Of a stretch of 40,143 nucleotides of DNA, positions 1,845 to 40,143 are shown in pieces. The stretch comes from a virus. The stretch lies in the IMG/VR virus record IMGVR_UViG_3300027850_000001, positions 1-40,143 of that record. The stretch is one strand, 5' to 3'. The notes below the pieces were generated by a model. That model saw only the letters and a list, made by a program, of their open reading frames with translations. It did not search any database and was not told the origin of the DNA. The stretch's first letter is position 1, and each line of letters starts with the position of its first letter. A program made the position numbers and the translations under genes.

Positions 1845-2147
1845 ATGACACGACCAACTATTGTTTGTCTTTGCGGGTCAACCAAGTTCAAGACAACCTT
1901 TGAACAGGCTAACCGTGACGAAACATTACTTGGAAAGATAGTAGTCGGTGTTGCCGTCTTTGGACATATTGACGGCGTTGACCCGGAGGCTAAACTACTT
2001 CTAGACGAACTTCACTTTCATAAGATAGACTTGGCAGATGAGATACTGGTACTAAATGTCGGAGGGTACATAGGGTTTAGTACGGCGCGGGAAATAGCCT
2101 ACGCCACTTCAAAGTCAAAGGTCATCAGATATCTTGAAGCCATTTAG
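1845..2147 (+). CDS. Moron-like small protein, possibly of the nucleoside 2-deoxyribosyltransferase-like (Rossmann-type) family.
   Basis: 100 aa. It has N-terminal IVCLCGSTKF and C-terminal KIDLADEILVLNVGGYIGFSTAREIAYA. From memory these resemble a small family widespread in phages. The gene has its own promoter and terminator inside the baseplate operon. Confidence 0.45.
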   Translation: MTRPTIVCLCGSTKFKTTFEQANRDETLLGKIVVGVAVFGHIDGVDPEAKLLLDELHFHKIDLADEILVLNVGGYIGFSTAREIAYATSKSKVIRYLEAI

Positions 2148-9272: not shown

Positions 9273-9462
9273 ATTTCCAATAGGATAAGGGACTAGTTAA
9301 ACCTTTCCTCTCAACTTCCCACAGAGTCAAGGACGGCTTAAGATAGTCTGCTTTGCCTAGTGGCTTTTTGGAATGTCTTCAGATCTGAGTTCCCGCAAAC
9401 CCATCACCTCAAACATGGTGTTCTTTTCCCTATCCCGCAATAGTTCTTTTCCCACTTCCTTT

Positions 9463-9468
9463 ATTCTA
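9463..9468 (-). promoter_or_regulatory. Candidate -10 element TAGAAT for the terminase/fibre operon. No good -35 or TG extension.
   Basis: The minus strand reads AAAGTAGAATAAAGGAAG, the same TAGAAT-AAAGG context as promoter 16883..16911. It lies about 190 nt upstream of ATG 9272. Confidence 0.35.
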
Positions 9469-9540
9469 CTTTGTTTACAAGAATGTTGCATCCGTATTTA
9501 GAATATTTCTTTAGGTATAAAAACTACTAAGAGTTAGAAT

Positions 9541-9573
9541 AGCAATAAAAAGCCCTACCAGACTGGTAAGGCT
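9541..9573 (-). terminator. Rho-independent terminator after 9598..9798.
   Basis: Hairpin 9551..9573 (AGCCCTACCA-GAC-TGGTAAGGCT, 9 bp with one mismatch). On the minus strand it is followed by TTTTTATTG. Confidence 0.6.
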
Positions 9574-9597
9574 ATATCTTTTTCTAGGTTTGTTCTT

Positions 9598-9798
9598 TTA
9601 GCCAAAGGCAGTGACGTCACCGTACTTGTTAACGTAAACCCGGTTCACCCGGAGTTCGCCAGCTAGGACGTATTCTCTCGAAGAGACGAAATAGTAGCCC
9701 CTCTCAAACATTTGACCTTTGATGGAATATTTAGGTTCTTGAGAAGCCTTTAGTTCTAAAGCAACTAACTGACCGGAGGAAAATGTTCTATGTAACAT
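9598..9798 (-). CDS. Hypothetical protein.
   Basis: 66-aa ORF between two terminator-like hairpins. No motif recognised. Confidence 0.4.
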   Translation of the reverse strand: MLHRTFSSGQLVALELKASQEPKYSIKGQMFERGYYFVSSREYVLAGELRVNRVYVNKYGDVTAFG

Positions 9799-9859: not shown

Positions 9860-9877
9860 TATTGGGTTTAGTGAAGC

Positions 9878-10048
9878 TTAGATGGAATATAGGAACATGA
9901 TGCGACCTGACTTGAATGTAACTTCTAAGATAGTTTCAACAGGCTGGTCTATGTCATGGACGTCTGTGAACTTAACGCCTGTTTCCTTCAAGGTATATGT
10001 TTCAGAGTTGTCGTCATAAACTAAAGCGGTGCGTAGTACTTGTGTCAT
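9878..10048 (-). CDS. 56-aa early protein, paralog A (below the ORF-track cutoff).
   Basis: Hand translation: MTQVLRTALVYDDNSETYTLKETGVKFTDVHDIDQPVETILEVTFKSGRIMFLYSI. It has RBS AAAGGA, its own near-consensus promoter, and 48 of 56 residues identical to 10241..10411. Confidence 0.65.
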   Translation of the reverse strand: MTQVLRTALVYDDNSETYTLKETGVKFTDVHDIDQPVETILEVTFKSGRIMFLYSI

Positions 10049-10223: not shown

Positions 10224-10240
10224 CTTTAGGACTGACTAAC

Positions 10241-10411
10241 TTAGATGGAATAAAGGAACATAATGCGTCCAGACTTGAAGGTAACTTCTAAGCGTGTTTC
10301 AACTGGTAAGTCGATGTCGTGAACGTCTGAGAACTGAACTCCGGTAGCCTTCAAGGTGTATGTTTCGGAGTTGTCATCGTAGGTTAAAGCGGAACGAAGT
10401 ACTTGTAACAT
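10241..10411 (-). CDS. 56-aa early protein, paralog B (below the ORF-track cutoff).
   Basis: Hand translation: MLQVLRSALTYDDNSETYTLKATGVQFSDVHDIDLPVETRLEVTFKSGRIMFLYSI. Same leader and RBS as paralog A. Confidence 0.65.
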   Translation of the reverse strand: MLQVLRSALTYDDNSETYTLKATGVQFSDVHDIDLPVETRLEVTFKSGRIMFLYSI

Positions 10412-10550: not shown

Positions 10551-10850
10551 AATGGTGAAAAGTGGTTAGCGGCGTGAGGATGCCCTTGAAGGCTCATTAG
10601 TAAGCTAAATGACCTATTGGGTTCCCTCCCTATTTAGGAGGCTGTCACGCGCGGGCTGTAATGACCAAAACTCGTTAAAAGTGAAAAGAAAAGCGCAATG
10701 GTGAAAAGCAGAATGGTGAAATGTCTAAAATGACTAAAATGTCGAAAATGTCGAAAATGTACATAATGACTATAATGTTCAAAATGACTATAATGTACAT
10801 AATATACATAATGTACATAATGTTCAAAATGTCTCGAAGTGGTGAAAAAG
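10551..10850. repeat. Four dispersed copies of an AATGGTGAAAAG-like 12-mer (iteron-like).
   Basis: Copies: aatggtgaaaag 10551-10562, aatggtgaaaag 10697-10708, aatggtgaaatg 10712-10723, aagtggtgaaaaag 10837-10850. A related aaaagtgaaaag lies at 10677-10688. They flank the 9-bp array. Confidence 0.7.
10721..10837. repeat. Tandem array of thirteen 9-bp units, consensus ATGTNCAWA, AT-rich.
   Basis: Read directly: atgtctaaa atgactaaa atgtcgaaa atgtcgaaa atgtacata atgactata atgttcaaa atgactata atgtacata atatacata atgtacata atgttcaaa atgtctcga. Confidence 0.9.
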
Positions 10851-10911: not shown

Positions 10912-12201
10912 TTAGAAAGGTTCATCGTCATCGTCTTCGACTAAAGCTTCAGCTATCACTTCGCGGCGGTACAGTTGGTCATCGTGGTCGTCTCTATCAA
11001 CTTCTTTCTCAAGGCTGTCAACTGTTGGAGGTGTAGGGATGATGTTAAGGTAGCTGTTGCCATTGTACTGTAAGGCGTTCCCTGGCATGTAAATAACGCC
11101 TTGAATCCGAAAACATTGAACTGTCATGTTGTAATAGTTGTTAGCCACATAATGACCAAGGTTCAGATCGTAATAAAGGTTGAACCGACTTTGGACAAAA
11201 CCTTCACTGTCTAATGTGAAATAGCGTAAAGTACTTCTGTCTTCAAAGTCTAAATGCTGTAAGGCTACGAAGTCGAAGTTTGAGAAGAACCCTTCTATCT
11301 CGGAGATGTCACCTCCTAAATAGGCTTCAACTTCATACTTGTCAAAAGACTGTAATGGCAAGTACTGGCAACTTCTAAAGTGTTGGGTGTAGCTTTGCAT
11401 TAAACACAACGCATTGTACTGTCTAGCAGTCGTAGGAGTGTAGTAAAGCTTGGTTGAACCCTTTATGACCTGTTGACCCGCTTGCTCGCTGTAGCGCCTT
11501 ACGAATAGGTCTAGAGACATCTCCGAATAGTCACCTTTATAAACGCAGTCTTTGGGTGACTTAATGGCTAGTGTTTCGACTACCACTTGGTCGCACCCTT
11601 TAAGGATGTCCGAGAGAAAAGTAACTATTTCACATTTAGGACTCGGATCTGGTTTTCTTACGGCGGCTACGTCATAACCCGGTTCAAGCACCACTCTCTT
11701 TTCGGTTAGACCTTCTAGCACTTTGTTTAGCTTTGTCATAGCTAGACGTCCTTTGAGAGTGCTTACTTTCTTAACAATGGACTCCGGCTTACTAAATAGA
11801 AACAAGACTGAAGGATGTCTGCCACTTTGGAATAGGTTGTGAAAGACGTGAGTGACAAGACTGGAAAGACAAGCTACAGTCCTTGGTACTACTGGTGTTA
11901 CCGATATTGCTACGTCTTTGTGAATGTAAAAGATGTGGACACCATCAACCATTGTCTCTTGTGAGTTGTTGTTTCTATAGGTGTAATAGGAGGTTACTAC
12001 TAGGTGGTTTTTGAACTTGTAAGCTACACTTTCCAAGCCTGTGAAAATGTGTGAACCGGAACCTATACACCAAACACTTCCAGATGTGTTCAGAGTGACC
12101 TTCTTACCATTCAACATTATTTCATCTATCAAAGCTTCTTTAATGTAAGAAGAGTCGGTTAAGAAGGCATCTAGGGAGTAGTCGTAGTTGTAGTCTAGCA
12201 T
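10912..12201 (-). CDS. Early protein of unknown function, large paralog 1, with an SSB-tip-like acidic C-terminus.
   Basis: 429 aa with a consensus promoter. It is paralogous to 12289..13428 (for example VTFLSDILKGC / VKFLIEVLKGC, and YYTPTTARQYNALCLMQSYTQHFRSCQY / FYFPETKEQYIAFILMMSYTTKFNSCMY). The protein ends ...ALVEDDDDEPF. Confidence 0.7.
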   Translation of the reverse strand: MLDYNYDYSLDAFLTDSSYIKEALIDEIMLNGKKVTLNTSGSVWCIGSGSHIFTGLESVAYKFKNHLVVTSYYTYRNNNSQETMVDGVHIFYIHKDVAISVTPVVPRTVACLSSLVTHVFHNLFQSGRHPSVLFLFSKPESIVKKVSTLKGRLAMTKLNKVLEGLTEKRVVLEPGYDVAAVRKPDPSPKCEIVTFLSDILKGCDQVVVETLAIKSPKDCVYKGDYSEMSLDLFVRRYSEQAGQQVIKGSTKLYYTPTTARQYNALCLMQSYTQHFRSCQYLPLQSFDKYEVEAYLGGDISEIEGFFSNFDFVALQHLDFEDRSTLRYFTLDSEGFVQSRFNLYYDLNLGHYVANNYYNMTVQCFRIQGVIYMPGNALQYNGNSYLNIIPTPPTVDSLEKEVDRDDHDDQLYRREVIAEALVEDDDDEPF

Positions 12202-12288: not shown

Positions 12289-13428
12289 TTAGCAATAAAT
12301 ATATTGCGATAGTCTAGCAGGTTCATTCATGTAAGCCCTACCTGCGTAACAGACTGTCCCAGGTTCACCATTAGAACCGTCTATTAACATACCACCTACC
12401 TTTATGTCAAGTTGGGACATATTATAGCTATTCGAGACTTTATAGCCTTTGTCAGTCATAAAGACAGTGAAGCGCTTTTCGACTAACCCGTCATCTCCTA
12501 ACTGGAAGAAAGGCATGATAGACCCCTTTAGGAAGTCATCCACACTCCATAAACTATAGATGCCGCCACTACAGTCCAAGTTTCTCGGAGGGGTCAAGGA
12601 CTTCACTGTAAGCAACGCTTTAGCGCGCTTTAGTGTGATGTCATGCGTAAACATATACATGCAGCTATTGAACTTAGTCGTATAGGACATCATCAAAATG
12701 AAGGCAATGTACTGCTCTTTAGTTTCGGGAAAGTAGAATGTTTCCACTTCACGAATGGGCATTAACTTTTGTAACGAAAGAGTAGCACTTAACCACTCAG
12801 TTCCATTCCGAACATTCCGACTATAGCTAGACGTCTCAGAAGGTACTGGCAAGGTTGAAGGTTTGTGAATAGCCCTATGACTCGCAGTAGTTGTCGGACA
12901 TCCCTTTAGCACTTCGATAAGAAACTTCACCGCTTCAGTCTTTTCAACTTTCTTAGGTGGCTTTTTAGGTAAAGGTACTTCCATATTCTTTAGAAGGAAG
13001 TTAGTGTCAAGTAAAGGGTTAAGTGCTATCAGGTCAAGATAGTCCGCCTTGAATGAGGTTACACCCATCTTTTTCAAGACTGTCTTATATTTGGCACTGG
13101 CAATGTAAAAAGCCTTATTGGTTATGTTATAGAAGGTTGAACCCGCGTAATGTAGGCAAGAAAAGAGACATAGTGAGGGTGACTCGAAAACCAAGAACTT
13201 ACCAACTTTAGAACATTTTAGAACGTCTAGACAGTCAGCACCTTTATATAAATAGTCAAAGGTTATAAGAACTGTCTCATCATCTTCAACTATTGTCAGT
13301 TTTAATGGCTCAACATCACCTTCTCTATTGATAAGTATTTTGCGAGCGCCTGTGCATGCTATATAAGATAACCCTATGTAACCGAGTTGCACTTCGTTGC
13401 CGTTGTAAACAGTGGTTGTCGTCTTCAT
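12289..13428 (-). CDS. Early protein of unknown function, large paralog 2.
   Basis: 379 aa with its own consensus promoter. It shares blocks with 10912..12201 but lacks the acidic tail (ends ...RLSQYIYC). Confidence 0.7.
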   Translation of the reverse strand: MKTTTTVYNGNEVQLGYIGLSYIACTGARKILINREGDVEPLKLTIVEDDETVLITFDYLYKGADCLDVLKCSKVGKFLVFESPSLCLFSCLHYAGSTFYNITNKAFYIASAKYKTVLKKMGVTSFKADYLDLIALNPLLDTNFLLKNMEVPLPKKPPKKVEKTEAVKFLIEVLKGCPTTTASHRAIHKPSTLPVPSETSSYSRNVRNGTEWLSATLSLQKLMPIREVETFYFPETKEQYIAFILMMSYTTKFNSCMYMFTHDITLKRAKALLTVKSLTPPRNLDCSGGIYSLWSVDDFLKGSIMPFFQLGDDGLVEKRFTVFMTDKGYKVSNSYNMSQLDIKVGGMLIDGSNGEPGTVCYAGRAYMNEPARLSQYIYC

Positions 13429-19549: not shown

Positions 19550-20150
19550 GGTGGTTATATTCTACTTGGTGAACGTCTGTTGTATTTAGGTAGCCACATA
19601 TAGCATCACTGTACCTGGCTGACTTACTTATAGCATCTCTGATAGCTGCTGTCAAGGGTCTTTTTCTCAACCATCCGAAAGTCTTAATAGAGTGTAACAC
19701 AGCTACCTTTGTCATCACCCTAACCTTAGTCCCTTGTAAGATGGCATAGATGGGACAAACTCCGGTGTTAAACCAGCCTACTGGTAGCCATCTTTCGTCA
19801 TCTGTCCTTAGGTCGTTAACCCCTGTTGGGTTCTCTTGCTGATAAAGTTCAAACCCGATATTCTTATACTTACAACCACTTTCTTGTCTTTTAATACTAA
19901 GTGGATATATTCCGGGAGTGACACCTATCTCTTCCCACTGCGAGCCAACTGTTATCCAACAGTCGATATCTTGCATGATGTTCTCATACTTTGAACTATC
20001 TTCCGTTGGGATGCCTAGTTCTTCTAAGAGTTGTCTGACGGTTCTTTCGCCAGCTAAACCCATTCCTAATGATGTTCCGTAATAAGACATGATGTTAAAT
20101 GTTAAAGAAGGTTTGACATTGAGGGGTTTGTTCTTTGGGTTCTCTTTCAT
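19488..20150 (-). CDS. Hypothetical protein, possible PD-(D/E)xK-type nuclease.
   Basis: 220-aa ORF. The true start may be MSYYG at 20090, 4 nt after the stop of the small upstream ORF. QDIDCW ... LSIKRQE is weakly reminiscent of a D...(D/E/S)xK nuclease core. Confidence 0.45.
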   Translation of the reverse strand: MKENPKNKPLNVKPSLTFNIMSYYGTSLGMGLAGERTVRQLLEELGIPTEDSSKYENIMQDIDCWITVGSQWEEIGVTPGIYPLSIKRQESGCKYKNIGFELYQQENPTGVNDLRTDDERWLPVGWFNTGVCPIYAILQGTKVRVMTKVAVLHSIKTFGWLRKRPLTAAIRDAISKSARYSDAICGYLNTTDVHQVEYNHHDQSKVIIRPTPPASVRTCS

Positions 20151-20304: not shown

Positions 20305-20616
20305 CTAGTTTAGAGATGCTTTTTGAAGTATTTCTTTCAAGGGTGAAGAGACTACAGTCCGTACTAGTAAACGGAAGTCAGCCAAACTAAGGTAAGATGT
20401 TGGTTTGTTTTCGCCGGGTAGTACTGTGTAAAGGAAAGAGTGAACGTCAGTCTTATGAACTATTCGCATTACACGGGCTATATCTCTCTTACCTAGAAAA
20501 CAGATGGGAGCATAGAAGCATAAAGCACTTGTCGTTACGCCCTGCGAGCCATCTGATAAGGTTATGACGTTGATGTCTAATGTGTGATGGTAAACATTTT
20601 TAAGACAGGCTAACAT
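20305..20616 (-). CDS. Hypothetical protein, distant member of the small early paralog family.
   Basis: 103 aa with its own consensus promoter. The C-terminal SYLSLADFRLLVRTV resembles NVISLTDFNLVLIRL of 26510..27172. Confidence 0.5.
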   Translation of the reverse strand: MLACLKNVYHHTLDINVITLSDGSQGVTTSALCFYAPICFLGKRDIARVMRIVHKTDVHSFLYTVLPGENKPTSYLSLADFRLLVRTVVSSPLKEILQKASLN

Positions 20617-20647
20617 AGGTAGGAGACTCTTTTTCTGATGTCTCTTT

Positions 20648-20676
20648 ATCCTAGCTAACCTGTCTTAGTTTGTCAA
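20648..20676 (-). promoter_or_regulatory. Consensus promoter TTGACA-N17-TAGGAT.
   Basis: -35 at 20671-20676, -10 at 20648-20653. Confidence 0.7.
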
Positions 20677-20689
20677 GCCATTTTCAGAC

Positions 20690-22414
20690 TTATTTAAGAA
20701 GTATTTCAAGGCTGTCTTCTAACTGCCTACTAACCACCTTCTTTTCGTCATCAGTCCAAGCGGAATATTCATGCATTTTGGCAACAAACTCTTCAGGACA
20801 TATCTGACTGTAATAGGCGCTTACAGATCCGGGATATTTGTAACCATCAGAACTGTGAATAAGTTGCGAAACTTTGTTAAACATACTCTGGGGTGACTCT
20901 GAGTCTATCGAGCGTATTAGTTCATGAATAGACCGCTTAATGGTCTTTGTATTACTCGCTGTAACACCTTTAGGGAAGAAGTCACTATCACGCCCTATTC
21001 CAGAGACAGTGGCTGCAATAGTTGCTAGTAAGTACTGGGAGCCATATTCCGATAGTAAGGTTCTTACCTTGTCTTCTTTTTCTTCAACAGACATATATTT
21101 ATCGATAGCGACTCCAAAGGCTACTAGATGTGCCGTAGCAGTACACATATCTTTCAGGCTAGTTAAGCCTGGTCTAACAGCGTAACTTAGTCTTAAGGAC
21201 TCATAAGTGGCATGAAGAGTGTTAGCGTCCATGTGTTCTTTGAACATCTCTTGGCTCTTCACTAGGAGGTGCATCATTAAGGCTTCAAGCGTTACCTCAT
21301 GTTTAGCTGCAAGGGCATACCATTGAGAGTATAAAGTCTTTTGTTCGCCTTTACTTAATGCCCATGTACTCTTGGTAGATAGGACGTTAGCCCGTGAAAT
21401 ATGTCCTGCATCAGCGCCAATATATTGCGCTTGCTTATTGTAGTTAGTACACCCTATGATGACTGCTGTTGTCTTAACACCACACTGCATGTCCTGTCCT
21501 TTATCTTCTGTCGTCATTAAACCACCGCTAGCTATTATCTTGACAGATGCATTCTTCATGAAAGAGTGTTGAACATCACTATTGAAGTCGTCTCTTAGTG
21601 CGAAGTCAGCAGTAGCGGGTTTACCCCAGTTGAACTTACTAGACATCTCAGTAGGTAAGTCTTGACAAACATAACCTAAGGATGACACTACTTTTTCCAA
21701 TAGCTGAATGAAGAAGCTCTTACCCATCCCAGCTATATCGGAATGTAGTAAGCACCATCCACGCCATCTATGGTCTATAACCCTACCATCTAAGGTTACT
21801 TGACCCTTAGCACCCCATAAACCACGACCTAACATCATCATAAGCATGGTAGCTTCAGCGTCAGGTAGGACGTGTAATAGCTCCATAACATCCAAGTCTC
21901 TCAGATGTTCCGGAACAAACTGAAATAGGGGTAACACTTTATTACCGTAACCAGTACCACCTTGCGTGTCTAAAACGCGGCTATCAACCTCATCCGAGCT
22001 TTTAGCAACGCTATTCATTGCGTTACCATTAGTAGTGTTCTCGAACAAAGATGTGTAAGCTTTAATAGCCTTATCCATCCAAGTCTTTGAACGGTTCTGA
22101 CCTTGCTCGTAACGCACCCAACTTAATATCATCTTTCTCAATGCAGATGTATTAGTGACGGTCTTTATAAGGCGTCTTGAGTTGCTAACATTACAACCAT
22201 CTATCCGTATGTAGTCAGTAAGATAGAAAGACCAGCCGCAATACTTACCTAATGGATCGGGAGCCATTAAATATCCTCTCGGTTCCATATAAGCCACTAG
22301 GTCTGCCAGTACCTCATCAAAAGCAATAAAAGTACCTGTCTCTTCACCGCCATGTTCTGCTTCATGTTCAGCTTTACCATTCATGTCAGCAGGGTCATGT
22401 GTTTTCATAGTCAT
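20690..22414 (-). CDS. Replicative NTPase/helicase of the P4/D5 (SF3) type, possibly a primase-helicase.
   Basis: 574 aa. The P-loop context WRGWCLLHSDIAGMGKSFFIQLLEKV is typical of the phage/plasmid primase P4-family C-terminal domain. It lies in the replication module. Confidence 0.6.
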   Translation of the reverse strand: MTMKTHDPADMNGKAEHEAEHGGEETGTFIAFDEVLADLVAYMEPRGYLMAPDPLGKYCGWSFYLTDYIRIDGCNVSNSRRLIKTVTNTSALRKMILSWVRYEQGQNRSKTWMDKAIKAYTSLFENTTNGNAMNSVAKSSDEVDSRVLDTQGGTGYGNKVLPLFQFVPEHLRDLDVMELLHVLPDAEATMLMMMLGRGLWGAKGQVTLDGRVIDHRWRGWCLLHSDIAGMGKSFFIQLLEKVVSSLGYVCQDLPTEMSSKFNWGKPATADFALRDDFNSDVQHSFMKNASVKIIASGGLMTTEDKGQDMQCGVKTTAVIIGCTNYNKQAQYIGADAGHISRANVLSTKSTWALSKGEQKTLYSQWYALAAKHEVTLEALMMHLLVKSQEMFKEHMDANTLHATYESLRLSYAVRPGLTSLKDMCTATAHLVAFGVAIDKYMSVEEKEDKVRTLLSEYGSQYLLATIAATVSGIGRDSDFFPKGVTASNTKTIKRSIHELIRSIDSESPQSMFNKVSQLIHSSDGYKYPGSVSAYYSQICPEEFVAKMHEYSAWTDDEKKVVSRQLEDSLEILLK

Positions 22415-27701: not shown

Positions 27702-28169
27702 TTACAGACCTGTTTCACGGGTATTAACCATTGCGAAGTAAAGATGACTGGTTAGAAGGTCAGCAAGTTGAATAAACCAGGGTAATAAAGGAAAAGTGCT
27801 ATTCGGATCTGGGGTTGTAGGGTCATCGTAAGTTAGGCAGTCGATGGCGTATGTAAAGTCAAGCATACGTTGTTTGCTATAGGTGTTGTCTTGGCGATAG
27901 GAAGACAACCATTCATTACCTTGCTTGAAGGCTATCTCTTTTATGTCTTCCAAAGAGTAACCGTCACGCAATAGTGAACGTGATAGGCTGTTAGCTTTAC
28001 GACTGCAACAGTCTTTGCCAAAGTGTTGCTTCAGTCTGGAATGTAACATATTATGGGTCATGCCGTAACGTGGTGCTAATGTTCTAAGGCTGTAACCCAT
28101 CAACCAAAATAGACGTGCTTCAGATGCTTCTAATAAAGACAAAATAGGAGTAGCCTTTAGTGGGGACAT
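27702..28169 (-). CDS. Helix-turn-helix DNA-binding protein. It could be a regulator, and a small-terminase-like role is not excluded.
   Basis: 155 aa. It has an N-terminal HTH-like stretch GYSLRTLAPRYGMTHNMLHSRLKQ. Confidence 0.5.
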   Translation of the reverse strand: MSPLKATPILSLLEASEARLFWLMGYSLRTLAPRYGMTHNMLHSRLKQHFGKDCCSRKANSLSRSLLRDGYSLEDIKEIAFKQGNEWLSSYRQDNTYSKQRMLDFTYAIDCLTYDDPTTPDPNSTFPLLPWFIQLADLLTSHLYFAMVNTRETGL

Positions 28170-28572: not shown

Positions 28573-28929
28573 ATGTCTTTATTCAAGTCAATAACGGGTG
28601 TTGCGCAACAGGCTTTGGGAAAGACAAAAGACTTTCGGAAGATATTGGACGCCGCACCTGGTTTGTCTTCTTTCACGTTCCCGCCGCAAGTAACCCTTGG
28701 TTTGACCATTGCTAACAAGTTAGGGTTAGGCTTACCTACTACGCCGGAGCAAGCTATTACACGTATTCTAGGTAGTACTAAAGGCATCGACAACATACTA
28801 GGTACGTTAAAGAATACAACCGCACAAGTAGAAGGCTTTTTAGGGCAAGGAATAGTCAAGATAGGTGGTATCGAACAAAAAGCAGATAGCGTCCAGAAAG
28901 TCTTGAATAGTATCGAGTGGTTACAGTAG
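28573..28929 (+). CDS. Hypothetical protein, second gene of the plus-strand island.
   Basis: 118 aa, with GGAG 8 nt upstream of the ATG. Its composition is more protein-like than that of the antisense 170-aa ORF. Confidence 0.55.
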   Translation: MSLFKSITGVAQQALGKTKDFRKILDAAPGLSSFTFPPQVTLGLTIANKLGLGLPTTPEQAITRILGSTKGIDNILGTLKNTTAQVEGFLGQGIVKIGGIEQKADSVQKVLNSIEWLQ

Positions 28930-28938
28930 ACACAACAA

Positions 28939-28962
28939 AAGCCTACTTTTTAGGGTAGGCTT
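28939..28962. terminator. Hairpin usable in both directions. It has a better U-tract on the minus strand.
   Basis: AAGCCTAC (28939-28946) pairs with GTAGGCTT (28955-28962). The minus-strand RNA continues UUUGUUGUG. Confidence 0.6.
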
Positions 28963-29006
28963 CAGAAGCTGTCAGAAGAAGGTGTTATCTCAGTGAAGTG
29001 ACGATA

Positions 29007-29015
29007 AGTATAACA
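29007..29015 (-). promoter_or_regulatory. Extended -10 promoter-like TGTTATACT inside the ncRNA locus, about 70 nt upstream of the terminator.
   Basis: The minus strand reads CATTGTTATACTTATCG. The 9-mer is identical to the one at 1805..1813. Confidence 0.4.
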
Positions 29016-29575
29016 ATGAAGCTATTCCTTATATAGTGTCAAGACCCGCCTTAGTTTTAACTGTTTCCAGTCCTTCAAGCAAACAAGTTGACATGAGAAC
29101 CTAGTAGACATCCAGACCTAAGCGCCAGCTAATAGGTTAAGACGTCTATTCGGTTTTTTTCCCTAGCTATCGAAGTATTTAGACTTACTTGTAGTGCGGG
29201 CTACTTGGCTAACACTACCGATAGCATCAGGGTTAGGCGTCGAGTACTTTTCTGAACTTTGGTATCCATCTTGTCTCAGTCTTCAACCCGGTAGCGCTTT
29301 GGACGCTGGCGCTATAATGACCGTAGTCACTAGTTTAATAACGCTACCGAATATCCCACTGAAACAACCTTCAACCTTAGTCCTTACTAAGTACCGTCAA
29401 CCTAACAATGTGAGAGAGAAGTATTTACTAGGACACGGAATGGACTTACGCGCTCTCATACACTCTACGTGCTGAATATTTGCACTGCGTTCCGTATTAG
29501 TTGGTTTATCTTCCGGGAACTGCCCTTAGGTGTTCTGCCTTGACTTCCCCGCTCTTCTCTTTCCCTCACTTCTAT

Positions 29576-29584
29576 ATAATAACA
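29576..29584 (-). promoter_or_regulatory. Extended -10 promoter TGTTATTAT for the ORF-free unit.
   Basis: The minus strand reads CTTTGTTATTATATAGAAGTGAGGGAAAGAGAAGAG. The purine-rich leader resembles the other early units, but no start codon follows. Confidence 0.5.
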
Positions 29585-29632
29585 AAGACTGTCTGAAAAT
29601 GCAAGGGCTTTTTGAAGCTTTTGTACTGAACT

Positions 29633-30493
29633 TTAATGAACATCATTAGGGTATAAAAAGCACGCGTATTCCAAGATGTTATCACATACTAAAACCGAGA
29701 ATGGAACATCTATAGGTGTACCAGGCGTCTGTAATATTTTTTGGACTTCACTTTCTAAAGTTAAGAGCTTGGCTTTTGGTAAAGTTTCTATTCGGTCTAA
29801 AAGTGCGACCATCTTACGCATCCTATCAGTAGTAGGTGTAGGTAGTGTATGTAACCTGGTGAGCCATCTTGGACTATTAAAGACGACAGGTTTTAGACTC
29901 CATATCATGACCCATTTTCCACAATAAAACGTCTTCTTTAGTACAGCTTCTTCAGGGTACGCCGCAACTTCAGGGGTCATAGGTATAACAGGTAGTTCAG
30001 GTTTTGGCTCTTTAACTGGTGTAATAACTTCAGTAGGTACTAATACTTCCTTAACGACTTCGACACTTTCCGAAACTTGACCTGTTTTAGGTTTACCGTT
30101 TTCAAAACGGAGAACCCTAGCTTTTTTAGCTTTTTCGGATCTGATGGTTTTTAGTCTTAGCTTCTCTTTATCACTAGCAGCTTTACGACCAGCCCTTGAT
30201 AGTTCCCAAAGTGTCCTTTGGTTTAGCTCTTCAAACTCAACGTCAGTCAAGGCATATTCATTATATATAGTGTCAGGTTTAATGAAACTATAGTCTGGAA
30301 CGACCTTGTAATAGTCCTTATGTAGCTTCACATAGCTTTGAATAGCCCTTCTGATAAGCTCGGAGTCAGACATATCCATAGCAATAGCAAGGGAATGAAA
30401 CGTCATGTGATGTGCGCTATTGATATTAAATGATACAGTGTGACTAGGCATCCGTTTATTTCTTGGTCTGAACTCGGTAGTTTCGTCAGTCAT
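29633..30493 (-). CDS. Ribbon-helix-helix (CopG/Arc-type) DNA-binding protein with a long C-terminal extension. First gene of the minus arm.
   Basis: 286 aa. The N-terminal HTVSFNINSAHHMTFHSLAIAMDMSDSELIRRAIQSYV fits a strand-helix-helix RHH layout. It lies next to the divergent promoter region. Confidence 0.55.
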   Translation of the reverse strand: MTDETTEFRPRNKRMPSHTVSFNINSAHHMTFHSLAIAMDMSDSELIRRAIQSYVKLHKDYYKVVPDYSFIKPDTIYNEYALTDVEFEELNQRTLWELSRAGRKAASDKEKLRLKTIRSEKAKKARVLRFENGKPKTGQVSESVEVVKEVLVPTEVITPVKEPKPELPVIPMTPEVAAYPEEAVLKKTFYCGKWVMIWSLKPVVFNSPRWLTRLHTLPTPTTDRMRKMVALLDRIETLPKAKLLTLESEVQKILQTPGTPIDVPFSVLVCDNILEYACFLYPNDVH

Positions 30494-30513
30494 AACTATC
30501 CCTGTTTTTCTTT

Positions 30514-30522
30514 ACTATAACA
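30514..30522 (-). promoter_or_regulatory. Extended -10 promoter TGTTATAGT for the RHH gene.
   Basis: The minus strand reads CTTGTGTTATAGTAAAGAAAAACAGGGATAGTTATG. Confidence 0.55.
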
Positions 30523-30538
30523 CAAGATCCGAAAAGTG

Positions 30539-30547
30539 TGTTAAGAT
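30539..30547 (+). promoter_or_regulatory. Extended -10 promoter TGTTAAGAT, rightward and divergent from 30514..30522.
   Basis: The plus strand reads AAAGTGTGTTAAGATAGAGATATG. Confidence 0.5.
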
Positions 30548-30585
30548 AGAGATATGAAAAAGATAGCACGGTCACGGGTAAGGTT

Positions 30586-30723
30586 ATGGCTCAAACACCT
30601 GAAGAGAGACAAGCTGAAAAAGATGCACGCCTCTCCGAGTTGGCTAGAATGAAAGAAGAGACAAGGCTGCTGGCGGAAGAGTACGCCGCCTTAAGAAAAG
30701 CCCTAAGGGACTCGATGAAATAA
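30586..30723 (+). CDS. 45-aa coiled-coil-like leader peptide candidate (below the ORF-track cutoff).
   Basis: Hand translation: MAQTPEERQAEKDARLSELARMKEETRLLAEEYAALRKALRDSMK. TAAGG lies upstream. An alternative 32-codon ORF starts at 30554 in another frame. Confidence 0.4.
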   Translation: MAQTPEERQAEKDARLSELARMKEETRLLAEEYAALRKALRDSMK

Positions 30724-30728
30724 CACAG

Positions 30729-30765
30729 AATAGGTATAGCACATTAAGGCTATGCCTATTTTATT
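30729..30765 (+). terminator. Strong rho-independent terminator immediately before the first late gene.
   Basis: AATAGGTATAGC (30729-30740) pairs with GCTATGCCTATT (30749-30760): 12 bp including one G-U, with an 8-nt loop. TTTTATT follows and abuts ATG 30766. Confidence 0.7.
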
Positions 30766-31077
30766 ATGAGGGAAAAACAGAGATATACTAGGCTACTTGA
30801 CAAACTAGGTTCTTTCCGTGCTGACATAGAAGATATCTTAACGCAGGCAGAAGCCGTTTATCAGGCATGCCAAGTTGATGGTTATTTGACTCAGAAAGTG
30901 GCGGGAAAAGACGCTATCGACTTATTGGAACGTTTACCGTCAGTGGCAATACAAGCGGTTACGTTGAAGCTAGCGGCTGTCAAGTGGATAACGGAACAGG
31001 CTGCATTAGAAGATAGCATCGAGACGGATGACGATGCAACTGTCATTAAGGTTGTTTTCTCGGAGGTTAAGGAATGA
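30766..31077 (+). CDS. Hypothetical protein upstream of the portal gene, possible small terminase subunit.
   Basis: 103 aa with an ATGA overlap with the portal gene. The call is from position only. Confidence 0.4.
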   Translation: MREKQRYTRLLDKLGSFRADIEDILTQAEAVYQACQVDGYLTQKVAGKDAIDLLERLPSVAIQAVTLKLAAVKWITEQAALEDSIETDDDATVIKVVFSEVKE

Positions 31078-32570
31078 AAATGGAGTTACAAGAAAACCTA
31101 CTTTACACTATTTTGCAACGGACGCATGAGGACTATGACTTCTATGCTAGTACTTGGAAAACGATATCGGAGTTACGTGACGGCGCTCCTAGCATCCTAA
31201 GGAACATCGAATACTATCTCCCTATGAAGCCTGACGAAACACGGAGGGACTATCAAAGCAGAATGAAGCGGTTTAGTTACACGCCTATCTTTAGTACTGC
31301 CATAAAGGATACAGCAGCCAAGCTAGCAGCGTCACCACTATACGTCAACACGCAAGGTGATATCGATACAGTCTTTGACTATATTAGGGGTCATAACGAC
31401 GCTAGGGGAACCCGTGACGAAAGAACACTAGTTCAAGATATCTTTCTTGAGATGTTGTATTACGGCAAAGTTTACATTGTGGCGGATAGGAGACAACCCG
31501 AACAGACACCACGTAGTAAGGCGGAAGAGACTGCTTTAGCTATGCCTTATTTGAACATACTACCCGTGACAAGTGTTGTCGACTGGAATAGGGATGACGA
31601 CTGGTTTAAGGTGCGGGAAATAGTGGCTGAAAGAACACCTATAGCTTTAGACTATAAAGTTCGATACACGTACTATATGCCGGGACAAACCGTAGTATAT
31701 GAAGCTCCGGTTCAGTTGAAAAATGGCGAAGTCTGGAAAGTATGGAACGGTTCCAAGTTTATGTTGCCAAACACGCCAGGTCTAAGCTTGCCTATGACAG
31801 TGTTCCCTCATAATGCAGCTAACAGTCTTGTAACAGTTGGCGAACTGCCAGCCGAACTATGGGTAGGTTGTATGTGTTATTTGAAGCAAATACAACACAT
31901 GAATATCGAGTCAAGTTGGGGTGATAGTGGTGTTTTGGCTGGGACTATCCAAAGGGTGTTTACGCCGTCACCACCTGTTGCTAACGATAACCCCTCATAC
32001 TTGCAGGAAGAACCGGAGTATGATAAGGTGTTACTCGGAAACAGACAAGTTTTAGTGGGTGCATCATTCCAGTTTGTCGAGTCGACAGGGCAAGCTATTC
32101 GGAACCTGACAGACCAACTACGGACTATTGAGGAACAAATAAAAGCTATCGTCTCAATGAGGTTTGCATCGTCTGATACATCAGTACTAGCGCAAAGTGG
32201 TGCTAGCAAGATGGTTGACCAAATACAACTGATAAATACGATGCGAGACTATGGTAACAGGGTACGTCATGTTTATGAAGCCGCACTCCAAAACATAGCT
32301 ATTTTGATGGGACTATCGCCAGACGATATCGTGGTGCAAGGTCTGAATGACTTCAATGTCGACGACATCAAAGAAGAACTACTAAACGCTGTATCAGTAG
32401 ACGGACTTCGCGGTAACATCCCCTTAACAGCCCAAAAACTATTTTGGCAAAAGATATCCAAGATGTTGACCGGGACAGTTTCGACAGTGGATGAGGATAC
32501 GATACGTGATGAGTTAGAAGTGATATTCAACCCGGCAAACAATGTGACACCTGTAGGAGAGGTATTGTAA
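31074..32570 (+). CDS. Portal protein.
   Basis: 498 aa, first large gene of the head module, followed by scaffold-like and capsid-like genes. The call is from size and synteny. Confidence 0.6.
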   Translation: MKMELQENLLYTILQRTHEDYDFYASTWKTISELRDGAPSILRNIEYYLPMKPDETRRDYQSRMKRFSYTPIFSTAIKDTAAKLAASPLYVNTQGDIDTVFDYIRGHNDARGTRDERTLVQDIFLEMLYYGKVYIVADRRQPEQTPRSKAEETALAMPYLNILPVTSVVDWNRDDDWFKVREIVAERTPIALDYKVRYTYYMPGQTVVYEAPVQLKNGEVWKVWNGSKFMLPNTPGLSLPMTVFPHNAANSLVTVGELPAELWVGCMCYLKQIQHMNIESSWGDSGVLAGTIQRVFTPSPPVANDNPSYLQEEPEYDKVLLGNRQVLVGASFQFVESTGQAIRNLTDQLRTIEEQIKAIVSMRFASSDTSVLAQSGASKMVDQIQLINTMRDYGNRVRHVYEAALQNIAILMGLSPDDIVVQGLNDFNVDDIKEELLNAVSVDGLRGNIPLTAQKLFWQKISKMLTGTVSTVDEDTIRDELEVIFNPANNVTPVGEVL

Positions 32571-32824
32571 TGCTTGTAAAGCGTAAACGGCGTAAGGCGT
32601 CATCGAGACGGTTACGTCAGCGCGGCGGGCTATTCGCGGCAACTGGCGCAAGAAAGAGTACTAACAGACGGTTACTTTCTATGGGCATCCGTGCCGGAAG
32701 AAAAGCCACTAGGTTAGGGAAAAGCGCGTTACGGTTAGCTAAAAAACGTCCAAGGTTAGCGGCGGGCTTAGGTTTAGTAAGTGTCGGAGCGTTGGGGATA
32801 GCGGCTAGGAGGTTAGGTCGTTAA
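32570..32824 (+). CDS. Hyper-basic small protein, possible internal/DNA-associated virion protein.
   Basis: 84 aa, about 30 percent Arg+Lys (MLVKRKRRKASSRRLRQRGG...AKKRPRLAAGLGLVSVGALGIAARRLGR). TAATG overlap with the portal stop. Confidence 0.55.
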   Translation: MLVKRKRRKASSRRLRQRGGLFAATGARKSTNRRLLSMGIRAGRKATRLGKSALRLAKKRPRLAAGLGLVSVGALGIAARRLGR

Positions 32825-36330: not shown

Positions 36331-37818
36331 ATGCCTATCTCACTATCGGTTTATAACACTCCCGGCGTTTACGTCGAAGAGAATACCTGGGGTGTGACGC
36401 CAGCGTCTTTGTCAGACCATAGCGCGGTATACCTGTTAGGTTACTCAAGCCAAGTAGACGCACCCAAAAACATCCCTACCTTTGTCCAAAGTTTTGATGA
36501 CTTCGTAAACCGCTTTGGAAGTACTAGTCTTTCCATCCCGGTTGTTAAGGCGTTCTTTGACCAAAGAACCGGAAGTGGTTTATACTTTGTAAACGTTGCT
36601 GCAAGTCCTAGCCGTACTTTAGTTTTCTCACCCCTAACAGTCGATACTGTCTTTTCCATTACGGTCAATGGTTTTGTCCACTCGACAACTGCTATCACTG
36701 GTGACACTGCTTTAACTATCGCAGGTCGTCTAGCCACTTTAGTAAACCAAGGTAGCGCTACCGTTTATTTAGATGGTTTAGTGCTTAAGCACGCAGCAGC
36801 AGATACCTTCTCTTTCACTGCCAACATCACACCAACTATTGTAACCGCGCCAGCGTCACCAGATATTCAAGATGTTCGGTTGACTTTGTTACGCACTTTC
36901 GATGCTGACATGCCTCAAGGTTTTGTCCTAGCTCCGGAGTTCTTCAAGCGCTTTACTTTGAACGCGGAACTGATACTACTTCAAAGTGGTATTGAAGCCC
37001 TTTGCGCTGACCCTGCGTTCTATTGGATAGGTGTTATCGACTGTTCTAACGCAGTAGCCATCTCGACAGATATCGTCCGCGCTAGCCAAACTGAACGTGC
37101 TTTATTTTCCAGTCCTAAAGGACATAGTTCTTACTATGCACCTTATGTAGTAGTCGAACTTGGCGTGACAGTTCCCGCAAGTATTTACGTAGTAGCAACT
37201 GCTTTACGGGCGCAACGTGACAGAGGTTTACAACAACCTCCGGCTGGTAAGAACTATCCTTTACGTGGTGTGACTGCTTTGACAGCCACTATCACAAAGA
37301 CGCAACAAAGTGTTATCAACCCTTTAGGTATCAACGCCCTCCGGTTCTTTCCTAATGTTGGCTTCTGCATTTATGGTGCGCGTACTTTGTCGACTAACCC
37401 TTTCTATCGCTTTTATTTAGTAAGGTTAGTTTTGAACATCCTAGCTGGTACTTTGGAAGTAGCCTACGACAACCTAGTCTTATCAGGTGTCGACGGGTTA
37501 GGTACTACCTTTGCCAACATCAAAGGAACGGGTGTTAGTGTTTGCGAAAGGTTACGAGTTGCGGGCGCGTTATATGGCGCTACACCTGACCTAGCTTATC
37601 GAGTTGTTTGTGACAGTAGTAACAACCTACCACTTGACCTAGAGAACGGTCGAGTTGCGGTCGACGTTATTATCGTGCCAACAGCGACTTTAGAAGTGAT
37701 GGTTGTCAGGATGGCACGCGCCGCTATCGGTTCACCTTTGACCGAAACTGTAACGGGAACTGTAAACACTGCTACGACTTCTATCACCACACCTCAAGTA
37801 TCAATACCTAAAGCATAA
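36331..37818 (+). CDS. Contractile tail sheath protein.
   Basis: 495 aa. The N-terminal YNTPGVYVEE motif is typical of sheath proteins. The tube-sized gene follows. Confidence 0.8.
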   Translation: MPISLSVYNTPGVYVEENTWGVTPASLSDHSAVYLLGYSSQVDAPKNIPTFVQSFDDFVNRFGSTSLSIPVVKAFFDQRTGSGLYFVNVAASPSRTLVFSPLTVDTVFSITVNGFVHSTTAITGDTALTIAGRLATLVNQGSATVYLDGLVLKHAAADTFSFTANITPTIVTAPASPDIQDVRLTLLRTFDADMPQGFVLAPEFFKRFTLNAELILLQSGIEALCADPAFYWIGVIDCSNAVAISTDIVRASQTERALFSSPKGHSSYYAPYVVVELGVTVPASIYVVATALRAQRDRGLQQPPAGKNYPLRGVTALTATITKTQQSVINPLGINALRFFPNVGFCIYGARTLSTNPFYRFYLVRLVLNILAGTLEVAYDNLVLSGVDGLGTTFANIKGTGVSVCERLRVAGALYGATPDLAYRVVCDSSNNLPLDLENGRVAVDVIIVPTATLEVMVVRMARAAIGSPLTETVTGTVNTATTSITTPQVSIPKA

Positions 37819-38789: not shown

Positions 38790-40143
38790 ATGGTACTACC
38801 TATCGCCGCAATAGTCGGAGGTGTTGCAGCAGCGTCGACAATAGCATCAGGTATTGGCAACATCATCCAAGTAGGCATCGATGTCAAAGACAACTTGACA
38901 CCGACTTTAGAAACGTATGAAGGCAAGATACAGACTTTAGAACAGGTTACGAACAGTTGGTTTAATGGCTTCACGCGGGCTATACCTTCAAACTTGCTAG
39001 ACGGTTTACGTTCAGGTGTCGACTATATTAGAGATGGTTTGTGGTCAGCCGCCCAAATGCAAACTTCTATTATTGCGTCATCGTCCGAACTGGCGGTGAA
39101 CATGAAGATACCTATTGGAGACGCGAGAAAACTGATAGAAAGTAGTCAAGTTGCCATTGCGAATATAGCAGCAGCTTTGCCAGGGGAAACTGCTGGTTAT
39201 GCTAGTATCTACCGGAGTATCGCGGGTTCACTTTCAAAGCAGTTTAGTGGAGATGACTTTACAGCAAAGAGTGAAGAGTTTACAAAACGAATAGGTATTC
39301 TTGCTGCTATTCGCGGGGTTGATATGAACAACGCTGGGAACGCGAGTAACAGGTTCTTGACCGGGACAACTGGTTTTCAAGAGTCGATGGTAGCGGATAT
39401 CTTTCAAAACAACGCAAACCTTCAAAGCAACTTACGTGACCAGCTTGCGAAAAATGGCTTGTCTCCGGAAGACTGGAAAAGCATAACACAGGAAGCGCGA
39501 ACTAAGGTTTACTTGACCGCCTTACAGATGTCAGCGCCAGATAGTTTGATAGCCGAGTTTGAAGGTACTTTCCAAGGTACAGTCGAGACTATCAAGACAA
39601 AGATATTTGACCCGCTAACAGGGTTGTTTGGCATCCTACGCCAAGTTGAAGGTAAAGATAAACGTTCAGTACTCGACGCGGCTAATGGCATCTTGCAAGC
39701 CTTAAAAAGCGTAGGTGACATGTTTGAGAAGTTGGCTGGCGGCTTAGGTGTAAACCTTGACCCACTTTACTATCTGATAGGGTTCTTCGATGAAATAACA
39801 AAGGTGGTCAAAACCATTAGGGCGTCAATGAACAGTGTCGACGCTATTGGGTTCTTGGCTGACTATGTGAACGACCTACCCGGCATGATAGGTAGTTGGG
39901 CGGTGGGTGCTATCAAATATCTTTCCTCATTAGTTGACCGACTATTGGGCGCGGGGTTAAACGGGTCTGAACTTGGCAAAGTGGCTGGGACAGTTATGAA
40001 CATGTTCGAGACTATCAAAGACAACGTTCTCGATAACATAGATGTCAAGCAACTTGCTGAACTATATTTCAGAATATCGAAAGAGATAGCTGACTTCCAA
40101 GGTGAACTTTGGTGGTCGTCCATCAAAATAATACCAACACGTA
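38790..40143 (+). CDS. Tail tape measure protein, N-terminal part (runs off the window and continues at 128..567).
   Basis: ATG at 38790 (MVLPIAAIVGGVAAASTIASGIG...). The frame is open to the window end and in frame with 1..567 after the overlap is collapsed. Confidence 0.7.
   Translation, partial: MVLPIAAIVGGVAAASTIASGIGNIIQVGIDVKDNLTPTLETYEGKIQTLEQVTNSWFNGFTRAIPSNLLDGLRSGVDYIRDGLWSAAQMQTSIIASSSELAVNMKIPIGDARKLIESSQVAIANIAAALPGETAGYASIYRSIAGSLSKQFSGDDFTAKSEEFTKRIGILAAIRGVDMNNAGNASNRFLTGTTGFQESMVADIFQNNANLQSNLRDQLAKNGLSPEDWKSITQEARTKVYLTALQMSAPDSLIAEFEGTFQGTVETIKTKIFDPLTGLFGILRQVEGKDKRSVLDAANGILQALKSVGDMFEKLAGGLGVNLDPLYYLIGFFDEITKVVKTIRASMNSVDAIGFLADYVNDLPGMIGSWAVGAIKYLSSLVDRLLGAGLNGSELGKVAGTVMNMFETIKDNVLDNIDVKQLAELYFRISKEIADFQGELWWSSIKIIPTR
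40017..40143. repeat. Second copy of the 127-bp terminal repeat.
   Basis: Exact match to 1..127. Confidence 0.95.

Follow-up and report, generated by a model that had tools for sequence, protein, structure and literature searches.

A conserved terminator-like hairpin between a short protein-coding leader unit and the structural operon of a probable cyanobacterial phage, a candidate gate for late transcription

The structural genes of the virus recorded as IMG/VR IMGVR_UViG_3300027850_000001, whose 40,143 nucleotides (nt) are analysed here as a whole (the window), lie directly behind a hairpin that is very probably a working intrinsic terminator. This element, at 30729–30765 on the plus strand, ends a short unit that opens with a putative promoter at 30537–30547 and encodes p45, a small charged protein of 45 amino acids (aa), and its T-rich tail runs into the ATG (30766) of the first gene of a 12.9-kilobase (kb) structural arm. 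A preliminary description of the same DNA had likened this arrangement to the read-through control exerted at PR′ and tR′ of phage lambda. The anatomy on which that likeness was built proved real and is conserved among relatives, but regulated read-through is a tentative reading, and the more so its attribution to any of the factors named there.

The terminator consists of a stem of 12 base pairs (bp; 30729–30740 with 30749–30760), or 14 bp with its A·U and G·U extensions, containing four G–C pairs, closed by an 8-nt loop (ACAUUAAG) and followed by a tail at 30761–30765 that reads UUAUU in the RNA. The predicted fold has an energy of −18.2 kcal/mol against −5.4 ± 2.1 kcal/mol for shuffled sequences (z = −6.1; none of 200 shuffles was as stable), in keeping with the 12-bp hairpin and U tract touching the ATG that had been described earlier. 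In a scan of the whole genome it ranks second of 71 plus-strand terminator-like sites; a simple consensus terminator scanner run over the window missed it. Its hairpin energy and T score are on a par with those of evident gene-end terminators at 10224–10203, 10886–10865, 27685–27650 and 28961–28940. The fold of the minus strand is weaker (−8.8 versus −14.6 kcal/mol), a U·G pair in the stem being a C·A mismatch on that strand, and because of this pair and the one-sided T tract the constraint appears to act on the plus-strand RNA. The other terminators of the phage are short and G+C-rich with tetraloops; given this difference in style, 30729–30765 may be weaker than they are, or may be recognised by something.

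Relatives at graded distance were gathered through homologs of the portal protein and of the 103-aa product of the gene that starts at 30766. Five distinct close variants (the window, the L002 type, L003, L018 and L019) share about 85% nucleotide identity, and the more distant loci are ordered by portal identity to the window: 72% for L008, 69% for L009 and 56–57% for L010 and L012 (L010, 56%). The hairpin and T tract are kept just before the homologous gene in seven distinct sequences, namely the close variants together with L008 and L009, where the homologous gene encodes 101 aa and again has the hairpin just upstream. Among the close variants the sole change in the stem is from U·G to U–A, the loop is 3 nt longer in three of them, and the T tract differs only by additional Ts, up to eight (CCTATTTTATT, CCTTTTTTATT, CCTTTTTATT, CCTTTTTTT and CCTTTTTTTT); the U tract is UUUUAUUAU in the window and U5 to U8 in relatives, with T7–T8 in L018 and L019. 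The stems of L008 and L009 differ in sequence (AAGGGUAG/CUACCCUU and AAGGAUAGG/CCUAUCCUU). When the window, L008 and L009 types are anchored on their AGG/CCU base, 4–5 of 9 positions have changed on both sides, and the core stems of 8–9 bp contain zero mismatches.

The 5′ arm of the hairpin is also conserved beyond what pairing asks of it. A block of 32 nt at 30722–30753, which includes TAGGTATAGCAC at 30731–30742, does not vary in any of its 32 columns among the five close variants, as against 22–26% of columns in the flanking coding sequence, and it takes in flank and loop positions that are free of hairpin constraint. The 12-mer TAGGTATWGMAC within this arm is found exactly once per locus, 27–34 nt upstream of the first structural gene, where by our arithmetic about 0.01 matches per 21-kb locus would be expected by chance. 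It is present in L010 and L012 too (portals 56–57%), where no terminator can form; L010 retains AAGGCTATG, with its ATG serving as the gene start. The 12-mer has diverged in L008 and L009, both nearer to the window and both hairpin-bearing. The sequence appears to be older than the hairpin and to have a function of its own, which could be that of a late-promoter or activator site, an element of the 5′ untranslated region (5′ UTR) or a unique DNA site. The words GGTATAG, TAGGTATAG and AACACAG were considered as multi-copy late-promoter signals and rejected, none being enriched genome-wide and the two additional intergenic copies of GGTATAG being one duplicated unit; the motif was kept as a unique element.

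Upstream of the leader unit, the divergent region 30494–30585 holds two back-to-back copies of an extended −10 motif of the form TGTGTTAnnnT (class 1), as the preliminary description had proposed. The leftward copy, TGTGTTATAGT at 30514–30524 on the minus strand, lies 20 nt upstream of the ATG (30493) of a gene for a 286-aa protein and is a putative promoter by motif and position; the rightward copy, TGTGTTAAGAT at 30537–30547 on the plus strand (TGTGTTATATT in relatives), is the putative promoter of the leader unit. The two form a 7-bp inverted repeat (TAACACA/TGTGTTA). L009 has the same pair, L003 and L009 retain the leftward TGnTAnnnT at this site, and L008 has TTGACA-17-TAATAT in its place. 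Class 1 is not enriched over the genome (55 matches at up to one mismatch versus 58 expected), but four of its seven exact copies are intergenic and face a gene (1803 and 30537 on the plus strand, 16883 and 30514 on the minus strand), although only about 10% of the genome is intergenic; several early minus-strand genes have looser copies (TGTTATAAT, TGTTACAAT and TGTTATTAT) in the gap that precedes them. Class 2, TTGACA-N17-TAnnnT, matches exactly at six sites. Each of these is on the minus strand immediately ahead of a minus-strand gene between 10 and 22.5 kb, five in intergenic gaps and one overlapping a GTG start at 22508. An invariant −10-like AAAGAT is found at 30559–30564, at about +6 to +11 of the predicted transcript; both it and the inverted repeat are equally explained by divergent promoters and by the coding constraint of the 32-codon open reading frame (ORF) described below.

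The unit itself spans about 210 nt if transcription begins near 30554 and runs to the T tract; the short rightward unit ending at a hairpin that had been noted earlier is there, but not its length of 190 nt. Both of the ORFs previously assigned to it, of 45 and 32 codons, are present, at 30586–30723 and 30554–30652 on the plus strand. The longer one encodes p45, which is predicted to be helical. Within its non-overlapped portion, synonymous changes account for 9 of the 11 variable codons, against 1 of 12 and 0 of 13 in the other frames, a pattern that marks p45 as a genuine protein gene. A homolog in L010 (61% over 31 aa, E 1e-11) sits among the early leftward genes with a TTGACA-17-TACAAT promoter of its own and without a canonical terminator, and a 61-aa leader ORF of L009 has the N-terminal TPEERQA in common with p45. 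What the preliminary description took for a mere leader thus carries a conserved gene with a free-standing early homolog. The 32-codon ORF, which encodes a Lys/Arg-rich peptide (MKKIARSRVRLWLKHLKRDKLKKMHASPSWLE), starts only 6 nt past the −10 hexamer, and for this reason its mRNA may be leaderless. It is open in all five close variants with its stop retained as TGA or TAA, and in its unique 5′ part three of five variable codons are synonymous Arg swaps, against 0 of 6 and 1 of 6 in the other frames, in what is a small sample. Its translation is possible; a basic peptide is also the expected by-product of a Glu/Lys/Ala-rich sequence read in this frame, and L008 and L009 have no equivalent ORF starting upstream of their small-protein gene. 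A mini-ORF of five codons from ATG 30752, overlapping ATG 30766 as ATGA, was discarded, being lost in all relatives by a G to A change.

The cargo of the unit varies. It amounts to 45–47 aa in the window, L002, L018 and L019, to 24 aa in L003, to 46 and 61 aa in L009, and to 138 aa of unrelated charged sequence in L008. In L003 an in-frame deletion of 66 nt (22 codons; L003 755–762 corresponds to window 30653–30718) between ATGAAA direct repeats has reduced the p45 gene to 24 codons without touching the terminator or the 32-codon ORF and its stop. To judge from these comparisons, the conserved item is the layout of promoter, small charged-protein gene or genes, terminator and structural operon, which recurs in the three lineages of the window, L008 and L009 (portals 69–72%). 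The distance from the p45 stop (30721–30723) to the stem is 5 nt in the window and L003, 7 nt in L009 and 12–18 nt in L002, L018, L019 and L008, the wider spacing being due to a 13-nt insertion. A search of 28800–30800 against Rfam at E ≤ 1 gave no match for the leader RNA, and folding an alignment of four sequences, which are too similar to be decisive, yielded no covariation-supported structure besides the terminator (covariation term +0.38; a compensatory change in none of the 48 pairs outside the terminator).

Beyond the terminator, the structural genes run on the plus strand from 30766 to 3660. The ends of the window share an exact overlap of 127 nt (1–127 and 40017–40143) that makes the assembly circular, at 40,016 bp, and the tape-measure gene crosses the junction. 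The gaps between genes of this arm are 32–53 nt long, consistent with the tiny gaps reported before, and its plus-strand gaps contain no exact promoter of class 1 or class 2 except the motif TGTGTTATACT at 1803–1813, so that here too the earlier reading held; the corresponding gaps of L008 and L009 have no promoter of either class. A promoter-like site within the sheath gene (36557–36586) is not conserved in L008. The motif at 1803–1813 is the putative promoter of an inserted 100-aa orphan gene (1845–2147, plus strand) between the V-like and W-like baseplate genes, and this gene is followed by the second terminator that had been pointed out, at 2170–2200 (AAAGATAGC, 9 nt, GCTATCTTT; a 9-bp stem, 9-nt loop and T7; free energy −12.5 kcal/mol, z = −3.7), which abuts ATG 2201. 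L009 is without the 100-aa gene, its V-like gene (20575–21048) abutting the W-like one (21048–21383). With its own promoter motif, a single gene, its own terminator and polymorphism among relatives, 1803–2200 has the build of a textbook moron. Because the T tract of 2170–2200 abuts ATG 2201, the W-like and J-like genes would be transcribed only by read-through. Similarly, the minus-strand cluster of terminase and tail-fibre genes is preceded by two units of promoter, 56-aa gene and terminator and by another terminator; the tandem 56-aa orphan paralogs (9878–10048 and 10241–10411, minus strand) are 86% identical, each with a TTGACA or TTGCAC promoter and a G+C-rich tetraloop terminator (10224–10203 and 9856–9833). 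Terminators between recognisable promoters and late genes seem to be a recurring theme of this genome, and this architecture is the best argument for terminator-resistant late transcription.

In the mechanism that we propose, an early-type promoter at 30537–30547, read by host RNA polymerase, would drive the short unit encoding p45 and possibly the basic 32-aa peptide, and the terminator would end this unit, acting as a gate before the structural operon, because its T tract abuts the first structural codon and no host-type promoter is found downstream. Early in infection the RNA of about 210 nt would be made and the structural genes would be silent; particle production would need polymerase to pass both 30729–30765 and the moron terminator at 2170–2200, and late in infection a phage factor would render the host polymerase terminator-resistant. 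The leader promoter is of the same motif class as the promoters of the early region and of the moron, and L008 has a consensus TTGACA-17-TAATAT in the same role, which favours a gate of this kind. That the promoter is active and early, that transcripts do end here, that read-through is regulated and that a factor exists are all inferences from the sequence and its conservation. That late expression needs read-through at all seems to us slightly the better bet; that the read-through is actively regulated by a factor, along lambda-like lines, is our leading reading and a tentative one. An unlikely extension is that the leader–terminator module is the cis half of an undescribed late antitermination switch in cyanobacterial phages, in which a small phage protein confers terminator resistance; such a protein would permit passage of 30729–30765, of 2170–2200 and of the terminators before the terminase and tail-fibre cluster. 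In its boldest version the leader could encode the factor itself, as p45 or the Arg/Lys-rich 32-aa peptide, giving a self-contained gate with positive feedback.

Several observations weigh against regulated read-through at this site. The A+U-rich stem, the large loop of 8–11 nt and the interrupted U tract of the window may allow only partial termination. L010, L012 and L013 have no terminator here, and a gate is therefore not essential to the phage family. The variable cargo of the leader and the presence of p45 elsewhere in L010 fit a moron-like cassette that brings its own terminator, and the leader unit 30537–30765 does have the features of a moron: its own promoter motif and terminator, and cargo that is polymorphic among relatives. 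Sequence-specific recognition also seems to be under selection, more than a hairpin requires, because TAGGTATWGMAC is kept in relatives without the hairpin and the flank and loop are invariant. Promoters for a phage-modified polymerase would escape scans built on the host consensus and cannot be found in this way. Lastly, no antiterminator is recognisable, which is weak evidence: with nearly all early genes being orphans, a missing match means little.

The conservation of TAGGTATWGMAC in hairpin-less relatives opens an alternative that the preliminary description had itself set against its proposal, namely an independent late promoter. In such a scheme a late promoter or other unique cis site would overlap the terminator, with AACACAG..TAGGTATWGMAC recognised by a phage-directed apparatus such as an activator or a sigma-like protein; late transcripts would begin in or just after the hairpin, without its 5′ arm, so that they would undergo no termination and would leave the ribosome-loading region free, and the terminator would only insulate the late promoter from the early leader unit. 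The single copy of the motif at a near-constant distance from the first structural gene, also in L010 and L012, is as expected of such a site, as are the invariance of 30722–30753 at positions that the hairpin does not constrain and the survival of AAGGCTATG in L010 with its ATG as gene start; a start inside the hairpin would, moreover, relieve occlusion upstream of ATG 30766, which has no Shine–Dalgarno sequence. Yet 30725–30756 contains no usable TAnnnT −10 hexamer, so that a non-host specificity must be postulated, and no sigma-like or polymerase-like gene was recognised; the motif has diverged in L008 and L009, closer relatives that bear the hairpin, and was not found upstream of the minus-strand late cluster, where there is only the shorter, unenriched GGTATAG. 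Transcription of W and J past 2170–2200 would also be left unexplained, and altogether we regard an overlapping promoter as rather doubtful, although it is the most serious rival to our reading. The terminator might instead simply leak, as a constitutive attenuator: p45 and the structural operon would share one promoter, a constant proportion of polymerases would read through, timing would be set at the promoter and no factor would be needed. The A+U-rich stem, large loop and interrupted U tract of the window suit this, the two plus-strand terminators look like a weaker class beside the G+C-rich, tetraloop-bearing others, incomplete termination ahead of W and J would be in line with the few copies of their products in the virion, and the late arm of L010 also has an internal terminator-like hairpin (20046–20065). 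Portal, scaffold, capsid, sheath and tube must be highly expressed, though, and a conserved terminator ahead of them all carries a cost unless it can be overcome, and the lengthening of the T tract to T7–T8 in L018 and L019 points to efficient termination; passive leakage alone strikes us as unlikely.

A mechanism of translation or RNA stability, in place of factor-dependent antitermination, could take two forms. Ribosomes finishing p45, whose stop precedes the hairpin by 5–18 nt, might impede formation of the hairpin, in which case read-through would track translation of the leader; or the hairpin might occlude the start region of the 103-aa gene or stabilise a processed mRNA end. In the window and L003 the p45 stop comes 5 nt before the stem, and in L009 7 nt before it; ATG 30766 has no Shine–Dalgarno sequence and stands 5 nt past the stem, and a translated ORF is found directly upstream in every hairpin-bearing relative. 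Against this, the spacing varies, reaching 12–18 nt in L002, L018, L019 and L008, no alternative antiterminator pairing is supported, and a T tract that is kept and lengthened is typical of termination and not of translational control, which makes either form improbable. The least probable account, very unlikely in our view, is that the palindrome works in the DNA itself, for example as a packaging (cos or pac) or replication site heading the structural module, and resembles a terminator incidentally. Its motif has a single copy in each genome, where the head genes begin, and small terminase genes are often found in the place taken here by the 103-aa gene; the U·G pair and one-sided T tract, however, point to a function in plus-strand RNA, the large terminase is encoded on the opposite strand at a distance of 21 kb, the circular assembly carries no information on ends, and the 103-aa protein has no family assignment.

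Regulated read-through, the reading that we continue to prefer, asks for a factor, and the window proteins were searched for one. None was assigned to Q, N or another antitermination family by Pfam (E ≤ 0.01, 40 proteins) or PHROGs (E ≤ 0.01, 30 proteins), in agreement with the preliminary description, and these scans likewise recognised no sigma-like or polymerase-like (RNA) transcription gene. Q families are mutually dissimilar, and a new one could have escaped these searches. Of the candidates put forward earlier, the 286-aa protein (29633–30493, minus strand), with a weak, CopG-like ribbon-helix-helix (RHH) match (RHH_1, 18.3 bits, below cutoff; phrog_7325, E 0.001), is a poor one for a conserved factor, having no detectable homolog in L008, L009 or L010. 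Its gene is not always the divergent neighbour of the leader either: L002-type genomes have an inserted 397-aa gene between the two (L002 2502–3695; also in L004, L005 and L006), a paralog of the window's 574-aa DUF5906 primase/helicase-like protein, and homology of the L002 type to the window restarts exactly at 30527, between the two promoter motifs. The 155-aa protein with a helix-turn-helix (HTH), also named before, is conserved, but is a generic homeodomain-like DNA binder. Within the control region no genes are more widely conserved than its own (27702–28169, minus strand) and that of a 118-aa protein (28573–28929, plus strand); L008, L009, L010 and the locus L022 from a Trichormus metagenome-assembled genome (MAG) have both products, L024 also has the 118-aa protein, and neither product has a specific family assignment. 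An exhaustive HMMER search gave 24 representatives of the 155-aa family, with an N-terminal homeodomain-like HTH and a hydrophobic C-terminal helix; the family profile matches generic HTH only (HTH_38/23/7 and the N-terminal domains of GcrA and SpoIIID), with no Q or sigma assignment, and a Phage_antitermQ match of one distant member (E 0.037) was treated as noise. The AlphaFold2 model of the 155-aa protein is poor (mean confidence score, pLDDT, 54), and searches of Protein Data Bank (PDB) sequences with the RHH and HTH proteins returned noise only.

In phage lambda, PR′-qut-tR′ comprises a leader of about 200 nt that ends at an intrinsic terminator before the long late operon, and the resulting 6S RNA is non-coding. 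Q antitermination of late genes has been described (PMC9388147, PMC6606751). Like the Q/tR′ system of lambda, and those of Q21 and Q82, the present phage has a putative promoter that probably acts ahead of the need for late genes, a leader of about 200 nt, an intrinsic terminator and one long promoterless structural operon, and like lambda it tolerates foreign promoter–gene–terminator cassettes within the late operon. Unlike lambda, it has no Q homolog that could be found, its leader encodes a conserved protein, its terminator abuts the first late ATG, its host is probably a cyanobacterium and the gate is absent from more distant relatives; the 7-bp inverted repeat and AAAGAT, possible counterparts of the Q-binding and sigma-dependent pause elements of lambda, are accounted for equally well by the divergent promoters and by coding constraint. 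A logic shared with lambda Q is no ground for placing the system in the Q family. Morons are known as promoter–gene–terminator cassettes in phage late operons (PMC3594210). The leader unit shares with them its build, its style of promoter and terminator and a cargo that varies among relatives, but its place is before the whole operon, with the sole recognisable promoter on one side and every structural gene on the other, and its terminator is conserved across lineages though the cargo changes.

Another structural parallel comes from ONT-cappable-seq of virulent Pseudomonas phages, in which 42 terminators were located in 5′ UTRs and for 81% of them the product was a short RNA of <250 nt or else a long transcript formed by read-through (PMC10914365). 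Examples are T102 of phiKZ and a terminator upstream of the major head gene of YuA; they are conserved within genera and their mechanism is unknown (PMC10914365). There, as here, the terminator lies just downstream of a promoter, and those sites yield abundant short and rarer long transcripts. The Pseudomonas short RNAs were screened as non-coding, whereas the leader here is protein-coding, and the lineages and hosts are unrelated. The small proteins p7 of Xp10 and gp39 of P23-45 make host RNA polymerase resistant to terminators (PMC6624301, PMC3351154), and a protein of this type would explain how several terminators could be passed without Q, N or a nut or qut site; this is an analogy only, and no sequence or profile similarity to either was detected in the window proteins. 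In a new lineage, small proteins like these two would go unrecognised by any family search, and they show that an orphan of this sort could fill the role. An element comparable to the put RNA of HK022, which the preliminary description had also entertained, would lie in the leader and require no protein factor, but the lack of an Rfam match at E ≤ 1 and of leader covariation besides the terminator, in an alignment of four similar sequences, does not favour it. In common with leader-peptide attenuation at pyrBI and trp, a translated short ORF ends beside a terminator before an operon; it differs in that no alternative antiterminator helix is seen, the stop-to-hairpin distance is 5–18 nt and p45 is a free-standing gene in L010.

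To our knowledge, the Rho factor is missing from cyanobacteria, and no phage of theirs has a characterised antitermination system. The temporal control of late genes is understood in few model phages and is essentially unknown for cyanobacterial phages outside the T4-like and T7-like groups. Literature searches on cyanophage antitermination and on this phage group found nothing relevant. A structural operon behind a conserved terminator in several metagenomic lineages, with natural variants in stem, T-tract length and cargo and with hairpin-less relatives, amounts to a testable system. It may lead either to a novel route to terminator resistance in bacterial RNA polymerase, hidden among orphan early genes, or to a non-canonical late promoter laid over a terminator, and both outcomes would add to knowledge of phage transcription in cyanobacteria; if the terminator is merely leaky, the arrangement is ordinary operon tuning.

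The gene content identifies a contractile-tailed phage. The plus-strand arm encodes the portal (31074–32570), a scaffold-like protein, major capsid, sheath, tube, tail chaperone, tape measure and V-, W- and J-like baseplate proteins, and the minus strand encodes the large terminase, tail-fibre genes, a family A DNA polymerase with a mitochondrial-type exonuclease domain, the DUF5906 primase/helicase-like protein, a 5′–3′ exonuclease and many orphans. The first gene of the arm (30766–31077, plus strand) overlaps the portal start (31074) with its 3′ end; its helical 103-aa product has no Pfam or PHROGs assignment and a poor AlphaFold2 model (pLDDT 51), and word-based homolog searches with the 103-aa and 155-aa proteins returned close relatives only. 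A tRNA search of the window found none, Rfam gave no match over the whole window at gathering thresholds, and a megablast of 29500–32600 against GenBank phages gave none either; a scan of IMG/VR with AATAGGTATAGMACNNTNA returned 62 matches, among which the only relatives were two contigs already known. The nearest named relatives of the portal are those of Leptolyngbya phage Lbo402-yong5 (31%) and Microcystis phage Mic1 (26%), and a scaffold of the Trichormus sp. MAG carries a relative at 36%; on account of these portal relatives the host is likely a cyanobacterium, with filamentous forms as the candidates in view of the Trichormus and Leptolyngbya relatives.

A number of smaller features were recorded in passing. 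The 703 nt at 28930–29632, downstream of the RHH gene, are poor in ORFs and 80–82% conserved in close relatives, with no Rfam match, and are flanked by terminator-like hairpins at 28961–28940 (minus strand) and 29105–29148 (plus strand); this is presumably the non-coding RNA candidate of the preliminary description. L010, which is without the leader cassette and terminator, has a non-coding region of about 700 nt (8977–9670) directly upstream of its structural operon, to which the 703-nt stretch shows no similarity. In L012, GTGTACAA repeats occupy 9860–9965, directly upstream of the portal gene. Two orphan proteins of the minus strand, of 429 aa (10912–12201) and 379 aa (12289–13428), are distant paralogs (27% over 210 aa, E 2e-14), each gene being preceded by a TTGACA-type promoter. 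A 500-nt non-coding stretch contains, at 10719–10833, about 12 copies of repeats of about 9 nt (AATGTACAT and variants) with an iteron-like look. In the late arm of L010, just before the tape-measure gene, a clean terminator-like hairpin is found at 20046–20065 (AGATAGCT-ACGG-AGCTATCT, then TTTT). In the window, the gap at 1278–1316 between a 236-aa gene and the V-like gene has a 7-bp hairpin (GGGTTAG..CTAACCC) with no T tract, which may be an element of RNA processing or stability.

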